A stretch of 64,000 bases of DNA from an uncultured Verrucomicrobiae bacterium (lineage in GTDB: Bacteria; Verrucomicrobiota; Verrucomicrobiia; Chthoniobacterales; UBA10450): the NCBI GenBank assembly GCA_963815455.1, contig CAWFGO010000002.1, forward strand, positions 96,001-160,000. Direction: 5' to 3'. The position numbers and the translations under genes were made by a program. Within the stretch, counting starts at the first letter, position 1, and each line of letters begins with the position of its first letter. Below, in pieces: positions 17,083-30,380 of this stretch. The notes under the pieces were generated by a model. That model made no database searches and was not told the DNA's origin. It saw only the letters and a program-made list of their open reading frames with translations.

Positions 17083-19164
17083 CTAAAATCGTATCTTCAT
17101 TCCTCCGTAGGCCGCCCGCCCCAGAGACGGGAAACCAAGCACTTCCGCATAGTGTTCATTCGTTAGGTTATCGATTCGACCAAAAAGCGAGACATGCGGA
17201 TTGAAATCGTATTCCGCCGCGAAATTCACAAAGTTGTAATCTTCGATGTCGCGATTTGGCCCAAAGAAATTGGCGTTGATCTCTTCACGAGCATTCACCC
17301 ATTTGGCCGACAGCGTCGTGCGCAATCTGTTGCACCACAGATAGCTCGCCGACGCGTAGACCTCATTTCGTGGCCGGCGCGGCAGACGCGAGCCTTTCGG
17401 CGCGCCCACATCCGCCCCCGATGTTTTCTCGGTGTCGAGGTAAGTGTAGGCGCCGCTGAAAATGAGATTTGGGATCGGATTTGCCCGCAATTCCACTTCG
17501 ACCCCCTGCGTCTCGGCCGACCCAAGATTCAATGTCTCGAAAAGTCCGCTGAATCCGATGAGGTTCGACAAATCGTTATGAAAATAGGTCGCGCCGATCG
17601 TTATTTTCTTTTCCCAAAAACGCTGCTCGACGCCTGCATCCCAGCCCAGGCCCTCTTCCGGCTCGAGCGGCGGCAATGGCGCCATCGGATCCGGATTGAA
17701 CCGAAAGATCTTGTCCTGGCTGCTCGGCGGACTGAATCCTCTCGCCACGCTCGAATGCAGCGTCGTGTCGGTTTGGTCGATCTTGTAGCTGCCGGCAAGA
17801 CGGTAGGTCCATATGCCGCCAAACTGATTGAACGAATCGTGACGTCCGCCGGCGACCAGAATGAGCTCTTCCACCGGCTTGATCATGACCTGAAGGAATT
17901 CGCCGGTTTGTTTGGTGTGATCGCTCAGAAACGTTTCGCCAAAAAGCACGTGCGGACGCTCCTGTTCCGCATCCACCTCATTATAAAAGAACCCCGAAGT
18001 CAGAGTCAGCCACGATGCCGGATGCAGATCGTTCTGATAGTCGATCGTCTTGCGCGTGAACAACGCCCGCGTCGGGCCGACAAATCCGTCATCATTCGGA
18101 TCGTTGACCTGGCGTTCCTCGTCGTAACTGAAAATGAACCGATGATTCCACCAGTCTTCGATGTGAACATCGATATGCGGCGCGATCAGCCAGCGTTCGG
18201 TCAGGAAATTATCGCGAGGCCGGGGATCGGAAACGGTGTTTGGTAACCCGATATCGCTTAACGAATAGGTAAACAGCGTGCTGAATCGCAATGCCTCATT
18301 CGGACTGTATCCAACCTCACCGAGCACCGCGGTGTTGCGATACTGATTGTTCGGACGCGCGTTATCGGTATCGAGACGACTGACTCCCAGGGAATAATCC
18401 AGCTCGCCGGGCTCGCCGCCGGGCGAATCCGCTGGAATGGCAAACTTGCCGTCGCTGTGCAGCCATTCCCGAAATGTTCCATACGAACCGCCTTCACCCG
18501 CCAGCGTGATCCCCGGCGAACCATCTCCACGCTTGGTGAACATTTGAATCACCCCCGCCAGCGCCCGCGGCCCATAAATCGTACTTTGCGGGCCCCGCAC
18601 GACCTCGATGCGATCAATATCGTCGGTGGTAAAATCGGCGAAATTGAAGGCGCCCTGAAGCCCCTGGTTGATCGGAACGCCGTCCAGCAGGACCTGGGTA
18701 TGCTCGCTGCGCAACCCGCGCGTAAACACAGATGTGAGCTGGCCGGGCACCCCGGTTTGCACGACCGACAGACCCGGCACCTCCCGAAGCGCGTCACTTA
18801 CCCGTTCGATCTGCTTAACATCGAAATCCTGTGATGTGATCTCACTGACGCTGGAGGGCGATTGATCCAACGGAATCTCATTTCGGGTTGCTGAGACAAC
18901 AACTCGTGCCGCTTCCGCCTCCCCGTTGGCGTTCACCGATGCGGAACTCGCCTGGGCCAGGCGCGCGGAGGTAGCGATGAACAACATAAAAACCAGGAGC
19001 GCGACTTCTGAGAAGCGCACAGCCTGCCCGCCCGTGTGCGGGCGGCTCGCGTGCACTTTCCGGCGGCTCGCCGGAAAGAATGTGTTTGGCCAGCCGCCAA
19101 ACACGACACGCCGGCGGCGTGTGCTCCCCAGACAACAGAAACAAAATAACAGGCGATTTTGCAT
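17083..19164 (-). CDS. btuB: TonB-dependent receptor, likely cobalamin (BtuB-like)
   Basis: Plug motifs VLLDGVPI and IEVVRGPQSTIYG, C-terminal Phe, GGAGG RBS, upstream B12 riboswitch. Confidence 0.85.
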   Translation of the reverse strand: MQNRLLFCFCCLGSTRRRRVVFGGWPNTFFPASRRKVHASRPHTGGQAVRFSEVALLVFMLFIATSARLAQASSASVNANGEAEAARVVVSATRNEIPLDQSPSSVSEITSQDFDVKQIERVSDALREVPGLSVVQTGVPGQLTSVFTRGLRSEHTQVLLDGVPINQGLQGAFNFADFTTDDIDRIEVVRGPQSTIYGPRALAGVIQMFTKRGDGSPGITLAGEGGSYGTFREWLHSDGKFAIPADSPGGEPGELDYSLGVSRLDTDNARPNNQYRNTAVLGEVGYSPNEALRFSTLFTYSLSDIGLPNTVSDPRPRDNFLTERWLIAPHIDVHIEDWWNHRFIFSYDEERQVNDPNDDGFVGPTRALFTRKTIDYQNDLHPASWLTLTSGFFYNEVDAEQERPHVLFGETFLSDHTKQTGEFLQVMIKPVEELILVAGGRHDSFNQFGGIWTYRLAGSYKIDQTDTTLHSSVARGFSPPSSQDKIFRFNPDPMAPLPPLEPEEGLGWDAGVEQRFWEKKITIGATYFHNDLSNLIGFSGLFETLNLGSAETQGVEVELRANPIPNLIFSGAYTYLDTEKTSGADVGAPKGSRLPRRPRNEVYASASYLWCNRLRTTLSAKWVNAREEINANFFGPNRDIEDYNFVNFAAEYDFNPHVSLFGRIDNLTNEHYAEVLGFPSLGRAAYGGMKIRF
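19011..19129. repeat. GGAG double-hairpin REP pair in frame within the btuB signal-peptide region
   Basis: Minus strand GGGGAGCACACGCCGCCGGCGTGT-CGTGTTTGGCGGCTGGCCAAACAC with an inverted partner. Confidence 0.75.
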
Positions 19165-26842: not shown

Positions 26843-29800
26843 CTAGCTCAGTAATCTTCTTGCTTCCGCCAACGCGATGTCGATCTTGCTCGCGTCCTTG
26901 CCCGCGCCTTGCGCATTTTCCGGACGCCCCCCGCCCTTCCCGCCGACGATGGGTGCGATCTGTTGAATCAATTTGTTCGCCTGAACTTTCGCGGTCATTT
27001 CTTTCGGAACGGATGCGATTAATGCGACGGATTCTCCATTCGAACCGGCAAGAAATATTGGACCGGTAAACTTCGATTTCATCGCGTCCACAATAGCCTG
27101 AAGCAACTTCGAATCTGCGTCCGGCACCTGGGCCACGCAGAAATCCTTGTGCCCGGCGATAAGCTCGTTTGCGATTTGCACAGCCCGTCCCTGCAACTCG
27201 GCTCCCGCCGTTTTCGCAGCTTTCTTTTCCCACTCGCGAACATCGACATCGATCCTTTCCAAATGCGCCGCGCGCGCGGCGATCTGTTTCAACATCTCCA
27301 ACGTTTCCGCTTTCTCCGAAAAGATTGGCAATGCCGCGACATCCGATTTTTTGCGCACCAGCATTTCGAATTTTTCCTGCTGACGAGTTGCCTCCTCCAT
27401 GGCCCAGTGACGCGATGCTTCGCCCGCCACGGCTTCGATACGACGGACTCCCGCCGCGATTGCTTCTTCCTTTACGATCCGGAACGAACCTATCTCGCTT
27501 GTCGATCTTACGTGAGTGCCGCCACATAGCTCCATCGAATACCCGTTCAACTCGCGCGGTGTCCCGCCGATTTGCAAGACCCGCACCGTATCGCCGTATT
27601 TCTCACCAAAGAACTGAATGATGTCTTTGCGCTGCTTCGCGTCCGCGTACGGAATTTCCGCCCACGAGACCGAAGCATTTTCCCCAATCTTCTCATTCAC
27701 CAATGTTTCCACATCGCGCACCTGCTGTTTCGTCAGCGCCGCGCTCGAGAAATCGAACGTCAGCTTGTCCGGTCCGACGTAACTCCCTTTTTGCGAAGCG
27801 TCGCGCGAAACGACTTCATGCAGCGCCCAATGCAATAAATGCGTGACGGTGTGATGCCCCTGAATCGCGCGTCGGCGATCCACATCGACCGAAACACGCA
27901 CGGCCTCGCCCGGTTCGGGGGCGCGCCCTTGCGTCAGCATCGTGCGATGAATAAAAACATCACCGCGCTTCTGCGTATCGGTAACGCGAAGCTGGCCGAC
28001 CTCTGTGCGATCATGTCCGGGAACATGAAGCAACCCTCGATCGCCAACTTGTCCGCCCATTTCGGCATACAGAGGTGTTCGATCGAGAACGACATTTAGT
28101 TCGCCCGGTTTCTTGCCCGGCAGAACGGCTTCAACCACAGCCTCCGCCTCGAAAAAATCGAACCCAAGAAATCTGGTCGGTGCGGCCTGCAACTCCCCCT
28201 CTTCCACACTGATCTTCTCTTTCTTCTGCGCTTTGCGCGCCCGCTCACGCTGTTGCTCCATTAGCTTTTCGAAGCCGGGAACATCGACAGTTAGTCCACG
28301 CTCGCGCGCTATCAGCTCGGTCAGGTCGAGCGGAAAACCGTAGGTATCGTAAAGTTTGAAGGCGACCTCGCCGGAGATATGGCGCGCATCGGGCATCCCT
28401 TTTTCTCGACGAGCTTCCGAATTATCCAACGCTTCCGATTCACTCCCTGGATGGGGAGCGCGAGCATGTTGCTCGCTCTGGCCGGCATGCTGCCGGCCAG
28501 TCTCTCCACGCTGGGCCCATTCCCAGACCCACGGATAAGGCTCATCCGCTCCCACCAGATTCTCCGTCCACGGATTGCGGCAGATATAGAGAAACTTCTC
28601 CTCCACATCCTGATCGGAGCGCATCAGCCGGTCGTGATATTCATTCTCCCAAACCTGCCACCCTTTCTTGTCCTCTAATTTATTGATTTCCCGTGCGCTG
28701 AACGACTTAATCGAATGCATCAACTCGGGCAGTGACCAGAAGACGGGTTTCTCCCCATCGTCATCCGTTTTGGGAAACGGTTGAAAGAGAATGTGAACGT
28801 GATCGGGCATCACGCAGGTTGCGAAGAGGTCGTAGCGTTTCTGATCGAAATTGGCCACGGCGTTCAACGTGATCGTCCGTGCTTCAGGAGAGAGAACACG
28901 ATGTTTGCGAGTTGAAAACGTCACGTGATAAATGCCGTGGGGACGCTCGTAGTGAGGTAAACGGCGTTTCGAATATCTCCCGCCGTGCGGCCCATCCGGC
29001 AACATGCCGGATGGAGCGGGCAGAATGCCCGCGCTCCCCGACGCGCTGCCCGCGCCCGTCAACCGCGCGATTTCGCGCTCGAACAGCTCGATCCCTTTGT
29101 CCAGCGTCTTGTTAAACGCTTCTTCCTCGCGCTTAATCGTTTCTTTGATGTGCGTCTGTTTCGCGCGGACCTCGGGAAAAACGTCACCCATGGTTTTCGC
29201 GACTACATCGACAAGCTCGAAAAGGAACGGCTCATGAAAATCGAGCGTGCGACCGTAACGGACTGCGCGGCGCAGAATGCGCCGCGAAACGTAACCGCGC
29301 CCTTCGTTTGACGGAATGATTCCATCGGCAATGGCGAAGCTTAGTGTGCGAATGTGATCGGCGATCACGCGGAAGGCGATGTCTACGGAGAGTTGAGGGT
29401 TGAGAGTTGAGGGTTGAGGGTCGTTTTTCGGTAGCGTGCTCGCGTATTTTTTGCCGCTGAGTTTCTCCAGCTCATCGAAAATCGGACGGAAAACGTCGGT
29501 CTCGTAGTTTGAGACTGTGCCTGCGAAATCCGTAAGATTTTTTGTGCCTTGAATGATCGCTGTGACGCGCTCGAAACCCATGCCGGTATCGACGTGGCGG
29601 GCTGCGAGCGGCACGTACTCGATCCGGCCGGGGTCGGCGCCCCCGGCTACAGGTTGGGCATTGAACTGAATGAACACGAGGTTCCAAATCTCGATGCAGC
29701 GAGGATCGCCTTTGTTTACGAGCGCGCCGCGGGTATCGCCGTCGGGTGTAAGATCGACATGTACTTCCGAACATGGCCCGCACGGGCCGGTGTCGCCCAT

Positions 29801-30323
29801 CATCCAGAAATTGTCGGCTTTGTTTCCGTTTACGATATGAACGGCTGGATCGAGATCGGCTTCACGAAATAATTTCTCCCAATGATCGTGGGCTTCCTGG
29901 TCGAACTCGCTCGGTTCGCCGGGCCCAGGTTTGTAAACCGTGGCGTAAAGCCGTTGGGCAGGAAATTTCCAGCGATTGACGAGTAATTCCCAGGCCCATT
30001 CGATCGCCTCTTTCTTGAAATAATCGCCGAAGCTCCAATTGCCCAGCATCTCGAAAGAACGTGTGGTGATACGTGTCGAGCCCGACGTCTTCGAGGTCGT
30101 TATGCTTGCCCCCGGCCCGGATGCACTTTTGCGTGTCGGCAACCCGCGCCGGACGCCAGGACGGCTTCTGTTGCCCGAGAAAAATGGGCACGAACTGGTT
30201 CATGCCGGCGTTGGTGAAAAGCAGGTTGGGTGCATCCGGCAGCAACGAAGACGACGGCACGATGGTGTGCTGTTTCTCGCGAAAGAAATCGAGAAAGGAT
30301 TGTCGGATCTCGGCGCTGGTCAT
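26843..30323 (-). CDS. alaS: Alanine--tRNA ligase with in-frame RAYT insertion (one frameshift ~30055)
   Basis: [69 protein letters not shown]. Confidence 0.96.
28453..29039 (-). mobile_element. REP-flanked HUH/Y1 (RAYT-type) transposase element in frame in alaS
   Basis: [18 protein letters not shown] (HUH), [25 protein letters not shown]; inverted double-hairpin ends at 28453-28500 and 28992-29039. Confidence 0.9.
29388..29420. repeat. 7-bp tandem repeats in frame in alaS ([10 protein letters not shown])
   Basis: gagagttgagggttgagagttgagggttgaggg. Confidence 0.75.
29626..29650 (-). repeat. Single GTAG REP in frame in the alaS catalytic domain
   Basis: GTAG-CCGGGG-gcgccga-CCCCGG encodes VAGGADPG. 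Confidence 0.7.
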
Positions 30324-30331
30324 TACAGGAG

Positions 30332-30380
30332 GTGGCATGGGCTTCCAGCCCATGTCTCATCGGCAAGATGCCGATGCCAC
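30332..30380. repeat. GTGG REP pair just upstream of alaS
   Basis: gtggcatgggcttccagcccatg-tct-catcggcaagatgccgatgccac. Confidence 0.85.

Follow-up and report, generated by a model that had tools for sequence, protein, structure and literature searches.

A predicted REP-associated tyrosine transposase with its palindromic ends lies in frame inside the alanyl-tRNA synthetase gene of a soil Verrucomicrobium

Can a DNA transposase live, together with its recognition hairpins, inside the reading frame of an essential gene? REP-associated tyrosine transposases (RAYTs), named after REPs (repetitive extragenic palindromes), are the textbook example of a domesticated transposase, free-standing and in single copy; the textbook example of a parasite in the frame of an essential gene is the intein. 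The locus described here would join both ideas: an essential enzyme would include, in translated form, both a DNA transposase and the DNA hairpins that it recognises. It lies in a stretch of 64,000 nucleotides (the window; contig CAWFGO010000002.1, positions 96,001 to 160,000) from an uncultured Verrucomicrobiae bacterium, a soil Verrucomicrobium whose genome is called G000 below; other G numbers stand for genomes of relatives, L numbers for loci and P numbers for public proteins. The initial annotation of the window had proposed that an intact RAYT of the Y1 type, with REP ends, is inserted in frame in alaS, the gene for alanyl-tRNA synthetase (AlaRS). This proposal was upheld: the 227 codons were free of stops, the curated RAYT model NF047646 was passed, and every coordinate given for the element was correct.

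The cassette and its host gene

The minus-strand open reading frame (ORF) 26843..30142 encodes AlaRS. A Pfam scan found four families in it, namely tRNA-synt_2c, tRNA_SAD and DHHA1, with Y1_Tnp in the middle of the ORF. The tRNA-synt_2c match was interrupted at profile position 378 and picked up again 227 codons later, around the Y1_Tnp match, and no stop codon occurred within the alaS ORF throughout 28379-29059 (minus strand, 681 nt). Comparison with solved structures placed the insertion loop in the helical tRNA-recognition part of AlaRS, where the insert stands in place of a 6-residue loop (residues 370-375 in Aquifex aeolicus AlaRS, 3HTZ/1RIQ; near residue 386 in E. coli, 3HXU). The AlaRS linker had been described as normally short, in accord with the 6 residues of A. 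aeolicus and with an anchor-to-anchor span of 37-38 residues in three relatives vs 262 here. The features of the locus, in order of position, are as follows.

26843..28378, minus strand: alaS downstream of the cassette, to the stop codon, with the rest of tRNA-synt_2c, tRNA_SAD and DHHA1
28379..28452, minus strand: distal linker of the cassette, poorly conserved in the alignment and predicted to be disordered in the structure model
28453..28500, plus strand: REP on the 3' side of the cassette relative to alaS, consisting of the head GGGGAGCGC and two hairpins, translated through
28502..28954, minus strand: RAYT / Y1 HUH core, insert residues 36-186, with the HUH motif at 28793-28801 and the catalytic Tyr codon at 28586-28588
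28992..29039, minus strand: REP on the 5' side of the cassette relative to alaS, consisting of the head GGGGAGCGC and two hairpins, translated through
29040..29059, minus strand: junction linker, translated as TGAGSAS, between AlaRS ...EREIARL and the REP head
29060..30353, minus strand: alaS upstream of the cassette, with the aminoacylation domain and the start of the tRNA-recognition domain
30054..30057, minus strand: extra T in a T run (between HHTFF and EMLGNW), the cause of the frameshift in the assembled alaS, located by comparison with relatives

Judged from its sequence, the RAYT of the insert is intact, and a twin-hairpin REP stands on either side of it, the two in inverted orientation. 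The profile scan proposed for it was positive: the insert alone matched Y1_Tnp (Pfam) with an E-value of 1.5e-8 and the NCBIfam model NF047646 (REP_Tyr_transpos) with 81.4 bits over profile positions 3-145 of 146, a slim margin over the cut-off of 80. Against the same cut-off, two sister modules of the same genome, in metH and recG, scored 80.8 and 76.3 bits, respectively. The IS200 model NF033573 gave the insert 28.5 bits, below its cut-off of 55. The HUH motif corresponds to H87-V88-H89 of the insert and the motif YICRNP (28571-28588) contains the catalytic tyrosine, Y158; the HUH motif and this tyrosine were invariant in 36/36 aligned modules. When the PDB was searched with a profile of 36 modules, TnpA-REP (4ER8) was the sole sequence match. 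In the AlphaFold model, core residues 36-186 had a predicted local distance difference test score (pLDDT) of about 90; the stretches encoded by the REPs fell within residues 1-35 and 187-227, where the pLDDT was below 50 and disorder is predicted. Foldseek ranked 4er8_A first (E-value 6e-7, TM-score 0.57 on the target), followed by IS200/IS605 transposases at ranks 2-30. An internal start codon at the Met of GMLPDG, which had also been suggested, was rejected, as this Met was kept in only 1/36 aligned modules and the others carried I, L or V at the position.

All three PF01411 pieces of G000, a genome that is 90% complete, were found at this locus, making it the sole AlaRS, and a single alaS was likewise found in 3/3 published module-bearing relatives (G022, G021 and G005). 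The alaS start codon is probably the Met near 30323, and the first ~100 codons were found in a different frame (ORF 29862..30353, minus strand). As assembled, alaS is not one open frame because of one extra T: the window reads TTCTTTCGAG vs TTCTTCGAG or TTTTTCGAG in 9/9 relatives, and the base at 30054/30057 was likewise absent from soil contigs of relatives. Because it lies within a T run, the extra base fits an indel error, and it is probably a fault of the assembly. A second alaS loop, at Pfam position ~263 (window ~29380-29440), is short here and holds a RAYT module in other lineages.

The REP ends and the REP population of the genome

The domain had been described as bracketed by inverted REP ends, and this was confirmed. 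The two arms (28453-28496 and 28996-29039) were 44 nt long and 82% complementary. Folded as single-stranded DNA (ssDNA), each end formed two hairpins (-21.7 and -21.4 kcal/mol for the two ends, z = -5.6 and -5.7), and none of 200 shuffled sequences folded as well. The head GGGAGCRCRNGC occurred three times in the window vs 0.36 expected occurrences. Among related modules, examined without a hairpin pre-filter, a head with hairpins was present at the 5' end in 79/99, at the 3' end in 81/99 and at both ends in 68/99. In an alignment of 91 REP ends from ~60 cassettes, both sides changed in 13/16 base pairs (399 cells), giving a covariation score of 0.751 vs 0.193 for shuffled alignments; none of 500 shuffles scored as high, and slid controls remained at or below 0.20. 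Sequence conservation began ~4 bases ahead of the head, with the consensus (T)C(Y)G-GG(G/T)AGCGC. The head tetranucleotide is GGAG in G000; at related ends, position 2 was G in 57% and T in 43%, and A3 and G4 were each conserved in at least 96%. According to PMC8266576, TnpA-REP cleaves at CT and is guided by GTAG, with which the consensus of the REP ends is broadly compatible.

The core and the ends differed in how they are constrained. The proposed comparison of nonsynonymous and synonymous substitution rates (dN/dS) gave 0.055-0.084 for the Y1 core in the six close alaS-locus pairs with measurable dS, comparable to the AlaRS flanks (0.056-0.166 in the close pairs and 0.048-0.194 over all eleven pairs). 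The core value was 0.175 in the more distant G000/L011 pair, and dS was saturated in the remaining four pairs. In the two linker segments that hold the REPs, dN was high (0.13-0.72); in the close pairs where it was measurable, dS was only 0.21-0.77, with 4/22 linker estimates higher or saturated. In these pairs, the flanks and the core had dS of 0.86-2.9 and 1.4-2.9, respectively. Because dN/dS of the core was low and the linkers combined high dN with low dS, the transposase is constrained as a protein and its ends as nucleic acid.

A search for head plus hairpin located 88 canonical REPs of this design in G000. Type A (hairpin GGCTGCCAGCC) accounted for 68 of them and type B (CGCGCCTCGCG) for 13, and the remaining 7 were of neither type. 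The 88 REPs formed 35 inverted pairs, of which 32 were short doublets of 98-148 nt resembling REPINs (paired REPs) and three held a RAYT (585 nt in alaS, 572 in metH and 625 in recG). The ends of the recG cassette were of type A and those of the metH cassette of type B. The stem types of the alaS cassette were found at its own two ends and nowhere else in G000, and a BLAST search of both exact 48-nt ends against G000 returned no further copy. The initial annotation had suggested that the enzyme spreads the other REPs of the window, a proposal that was not sustained: the window holds only one other canonical REP head (19117-19128, minus strand), its stem type differs from those of the alaS cassette ends, and the REPs of the genome match the recG and metH cassettes. 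The RAYTs of G000 that were flanked by the genome's REPs were the embedded ones only.

The REPs of G000 were poor in stop codons, with 476/528 frames open vs 72% open in shuffled sequences, and 52/88 REPs were open in all six frames; this depletion makes life within a reading frame possible. Short REPIN-like doublets were also seen inside long open frames (G000:C3:173128-173268, G000:C2:503931-504056 and 506295-506393); one of these is a second insertion in metH, and the two others share a frame of 1067 codons. REPs within replication and repair genes are mentioned in a section of an earlier report (PMC3733652).

The cassette family and its history

Further Y1 inserts were found in other housekeeping genes of G000. 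Those in metH and recG were in frame and 44-48% identical to the alaS module. The carB insert, also in frame, falls into a Y1 subfamily of greater distance (RRNLPHW...FVTFRLAD), and its surroundings showed no REP ends.

G000:C3:169288-172770 (L002): sister module in metH, REP-flanked
G000:C5:89650-93150 (L003): sister module in recG, REP-flanked
G000:C1:1469471-1472752 (L004): Y1 insert in carB, distant subfamily

Three more Y1 genes of G000 were free-standing, with 27-29% identity, and no canonical REP was found within 5 kb of them. Among the best 120 public proteins longer than the module, 114 were AlaRS carrying it at the same site, and the others were RecG (3), CarB (2) and ThrRS (1). Strict regular expressions found an HUH-type motif in 118 of these 120 proteins and Y-x-x-x-N-P in 101, the misses including variants such as YICRNA. 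Two modules were present in nine AlaRS proteins, the second being in the loop at Pfam position ~263, and six metagenomic loci also carried the module in that loop. These proteins go by 'alanyl-tRNA synthetase/REP element-mobilizing transposase RayT' at JGI and by 'alanine--tRNA ligase-related protein' at NCBI, which uses this name although the gene here is the only AlaRS. The NCBI entries are assigned to Verrucomicrobiae, Chthoniobacter, Chthoniobacteraceae, Terrimicrobiaceae and Spartobacteria, and in one case to Nitrospirota.

A metagenome scan returned 496 stretches encoding relatives, and 60 of the best 80 were scanned with Pfam. The host was RecG in 26, AlaRS in 20, ThrRS in 6, CarB in 4 and MetH in 1, and 3 were stand-alone, so that 57/60 were embedded in frame. 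The cassette had first been treated as a single curiosity, whereas these counts make it a member of a clade-wide family. A full-text search of open-access papers and bioRxiv, supplements aside, turned up no account of a RAYT residing in alaS or in other housekeeping genes. Term look-ups in PMC5581495, PMC6006769 and PMC8049555 returned no RAYT within a housekeeping gene, and RAYT classifications (PMC6006769, PMC5581495) mention additional domains, with no housekeeping-protein fusions among the terms searched.

The proposed comparison with AlaRS of related Verrucomicrobiota, for which alaS was fetched from 19 published relatives and 18 could be parsed, showed both filled and empty sites. The module was present in 3/18 (G022, G021 and G005), the loop was minimal in 3/18 (G004, G006 and G001, the last from the same genus as G000), and the other 12 had other loop lengths. 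The AlaRS flanks closest to those of G000 (G011, G023, G001, G013 and G010; 80-87% identity) all belonged to genes without the module. The twelve relatives with other loop lengths (the L038-L047 set) carry unrelated-looking expansions at the same loop, spanning 48-170 residues from anchor to anchor, and no Y1 match was found in these other expansions. Either the loop at Pfam position 378 is permissive in general, or the expansions are decayed inserts.

Host and module did not always share their history. The host parts of P0027 and P0075 differed by 9.5% and their modules by 39.9%; identity per block was ~38/40, fell to 12-21/40 within the module and was 39/40 right after it. Conversely, the host parts of P0028 and P0043 differed by 12.7% and their modules by 0%. 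In a tree of 99 modules, the starred branches gave at least two module lineages at the alaS site. Stand-alone copies were nested in a RecG-embedded clade of this tree and, because of this nesting, the embedded and free states appear to interconvert. Free-standing module copies with the same REP ends were seen at L015-L018, L068, L083, L116, L118, L121 and L122. The approximately unbiased (AU) test rejected a single clade for the 24 AlaRS-site modules (p = 1.2e-5) and for the 38 RecG modules (p = 0.0017); one of the 24 AlaRS-site rows (L021) came from the unpublished genome G008, and no conclusion was drawn on G003 or G008 alone. We read this history as mostly vertical descent with replacement, loss and between-site transfer, which is the behaviour of a mobile element with a strong site preference.

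Proposed working, rival explanations and known systems

With a probability of roughly 70%, the cassette is a translated, in-frame, horizontally exchanged REPtron (a RAYT gene between inverted REPs), housed in a permissive loop at the surface of the tRNA-recognition domain of the only AlaRS that the cell has. Having no stop codon and no need of its own promoter, it would be transcribed and translated along with alaS. The product would be an AlaRS that carries a Y1/HUH ssDNA nuclease-ligase domain of ~150 residues on two disordered tethers; the proximal tether and part of the distal one would be REP hairpins read as protein. Selection would preserve the catalytic integrity of the Y1 domain and maintain the hairpin structure of the REP ends as DNA, these being the cis sites of the enzyme, and the domain may be active on the ssDNA of its own REPs. 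Residence in an essential gene would secure expression and leave precise in-frame deletion as the only way of removal, an intein-like niche with no protein splicing. The cassette family seems to be mobile, as suggested by distinct module lineages at the same alaS site and by close hosts with distant modules, and the reverse, with sister lineages in recG, thrS, carB, metH and the second alaS loop. Spread may have occurred either by RAYT-mediated ssDNA cut-and-paste at CT/G(T/G)AG sites or by homologous recombination through the conserved host flanks.

The initial annotation had also viewed the element as a passenger in an essential gene, expressed as a fusion without splicing. The in-frame position, the single-copy gene and the lack of any sign of splicing agree with this view, and the predicted expression of the fusion draws on comparative evidence.

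Several points weigh against an exchanged, translated REPtron. Host and module distances were correlated among 79 module-bearing AlaRS (r = 0.50, with 0/999 permutations as high), which speaks for much vertical history, and the 99-module tree clustered by host gene, with 17 changes between hosts (minimum 7, shuffled mean 54.8). The groups in the AU test were chosen after the tree had been seen. Since the aligned REP ends had been pre-selected for hairpins, the 99% pairing among them is circular; what counts as evidence is the changes on both sides. The alaS REP types have no further copies, and REP-spreading by this enzyme is not evident here. Among public sequencing runs, none contained more than 7% of the words sampled from the stretch, no RNA run was listed as containing it, and the contigs that matched at 80% likeness came from other organisms. 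The evidence for translation of the fusion and for both junctions is comparative, and the frameshift in alaS as assembled, if real, would mean that this gene copy is broken.

The rival that survives best, which we nevertheless regard as unlikely, is a domain domesticated long ago: an ancestor of the order would have captured a RAYT a single time, its descent would have been vertical along with alaS (and separately so for recG, metH and others), it would be kept as useful to the host protein or the cell, and the empty sites would be losses. The clustering of modules by host gene and the correlation of host and module distances favour it, as does purifying selection on the core equal to that on the host; RAYTs are, moreover, generally regarded as domesticated, vertical, single-copy genes in the part of PMC5581495 that bears on this. 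However, the same cassette with its REP ends occurs in five unrelated host proteins, and the ends are kept as nucleic acid, not as peptide. Furthermore, one clade of AlaRS-site modules was rejected by the AU test, modules were identical in hosts 12.7% apart and 39.9% apart in hosts differing by 9.5%, and stand-alone copies lay inside a RecG clade.

Intervening elements of essential genes (inteins, group I and II introns, IStrons) usually splice, and the cassette might accordingly be removed before the enzyme works, by RNA splicing, by protein splicing or by RAYT-mediated DNA excision in part of the population, so that mature AlaRS lacks it. Insert-free alleles do exist: in one soil contig, from a relative, 28351 is directly followed by 29079, with the 727 bases in between missing. 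That contig is only 80-95% alike, however, and hence comes from another organism. An intron or intein was rejected: Pfam found no Hint or intein domain in the ORF, the junctions (ARL/TGAG and ARH/ISGE) lack the intein His-Asn and the +1 Cys/Ser/Thr, and no Rfam family, group I/II introns included, matched 28200-29250 at E <= 1. The open frame is also kept in 57/60 relatives, and a spliced element would need none. Removal of the cassette is thus very improbable. An artefact, whether a chimeric assembly or an alaS pseudogene that tolerates the insertion, is hardly credible: the 1-nt frameshift near the 5' end of alaS and the 90% completeness of the genome, in which a second alaS may be unassembled, would allow it, but the same architecture stands at the same site in more than 100 independent public contigs and proteins, strong purifying selection acts on both alaS flanks and on the module, the extra base in the T run fits an indel error, and the published module-bearing relatives (3/3) have a single alaS.

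Beyond the alaS cassette itself, in-frame REPtrons may form a distinct selfish class that uses loops of essential proteins (AlaRS, ThrRS, RecG, CarB and MetH) as an expression platform and safe harbour, re-colonises them across lineages in a homing-like manner and maintains the REPINs of the genome; we regard this as slightly less likely than not. Housekeeping enzymes would then display the nuclease domains that drive REP biology here. Should the fusion be made and be active, it would offer mobile elements a third way of residing in an essential gene, beside splicing at the RNA or the protein level, and it would be a natural case in which AlaRS, ThrRS, RecG, CarB and MetH tolerate a large inserted domain. 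Annotation would be affected as well, given the name that NCBI uses for such AlaRS genes. The role of RAYTs and the spread of REPs could in that case be tested where the dose of the enzyme is tied to a housekeeping gene.

As a REPtron, the element is of a known kind; its in-frame residence in essential genes is what is new. With known REPtrons (TnpA-REP/RAYT; E. coli yafM, PDB 4ER8; Stenotrophomonas and Marinomonas; Pseudomonas REPIN-RAYT) it shares the Y1 HUH enzyme, the curated RAYT model and 4ER8 as best fold match, as well as inverted REP flanks with a G(T/G)AG head, often after CT, which are present at both ends in 68/99 related modules. Dispersed REP doublets of matching type are shared by the sister cassettes in recG and metH only, whereas the alaS cassette lacks a dispersed cognate REP population. 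It also differs in that it is not free-standing, the whole unit including the hairpins lying within a housekeeping reading frame, in that one genome holds three REP-flanked cassettes and a carB insert, each in a different housekeeping gene, and in that each REP end has two hairpins, with the head GGAG rather than GTAG in G000.

The superfamily fold of Y1 (Foldseek ranks 2-30), hairpin ends and single-strand chemistry are common to the cassette and to IS200/IS605 elements and IStrons. The cassette differs from these in scoring below the IS200 cut-off (28.5 vs 55), in having no tnpB, in its inverted rather than direct ends and in the lack of an intron RNA. Rickettsia palindromic elements and REPs in ORFs, as treated in a part of Di Nocera et al. 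2013 (PMC3733652), are likewise in-frame palindromic repeats translated as tolerated loop peptides; the Rickettsia elements described there are gene-free, whereas here a transposase rides in frame between the repeats. Inteins with homing endonucleases are also selfish coding elements that lie in frame at conserved sites of essential genes (aminoacyl-tRNA synthetases, recombination and replication proteins), and they share with the cassette expression through the host gene, a patchy distribution and the use of one site by different lineages. Unlike them, the cassette has no Hint domain, no splicing residues and no LAGLIDADG or HNH nuclease, and the insert apparently stays in the mature protein.

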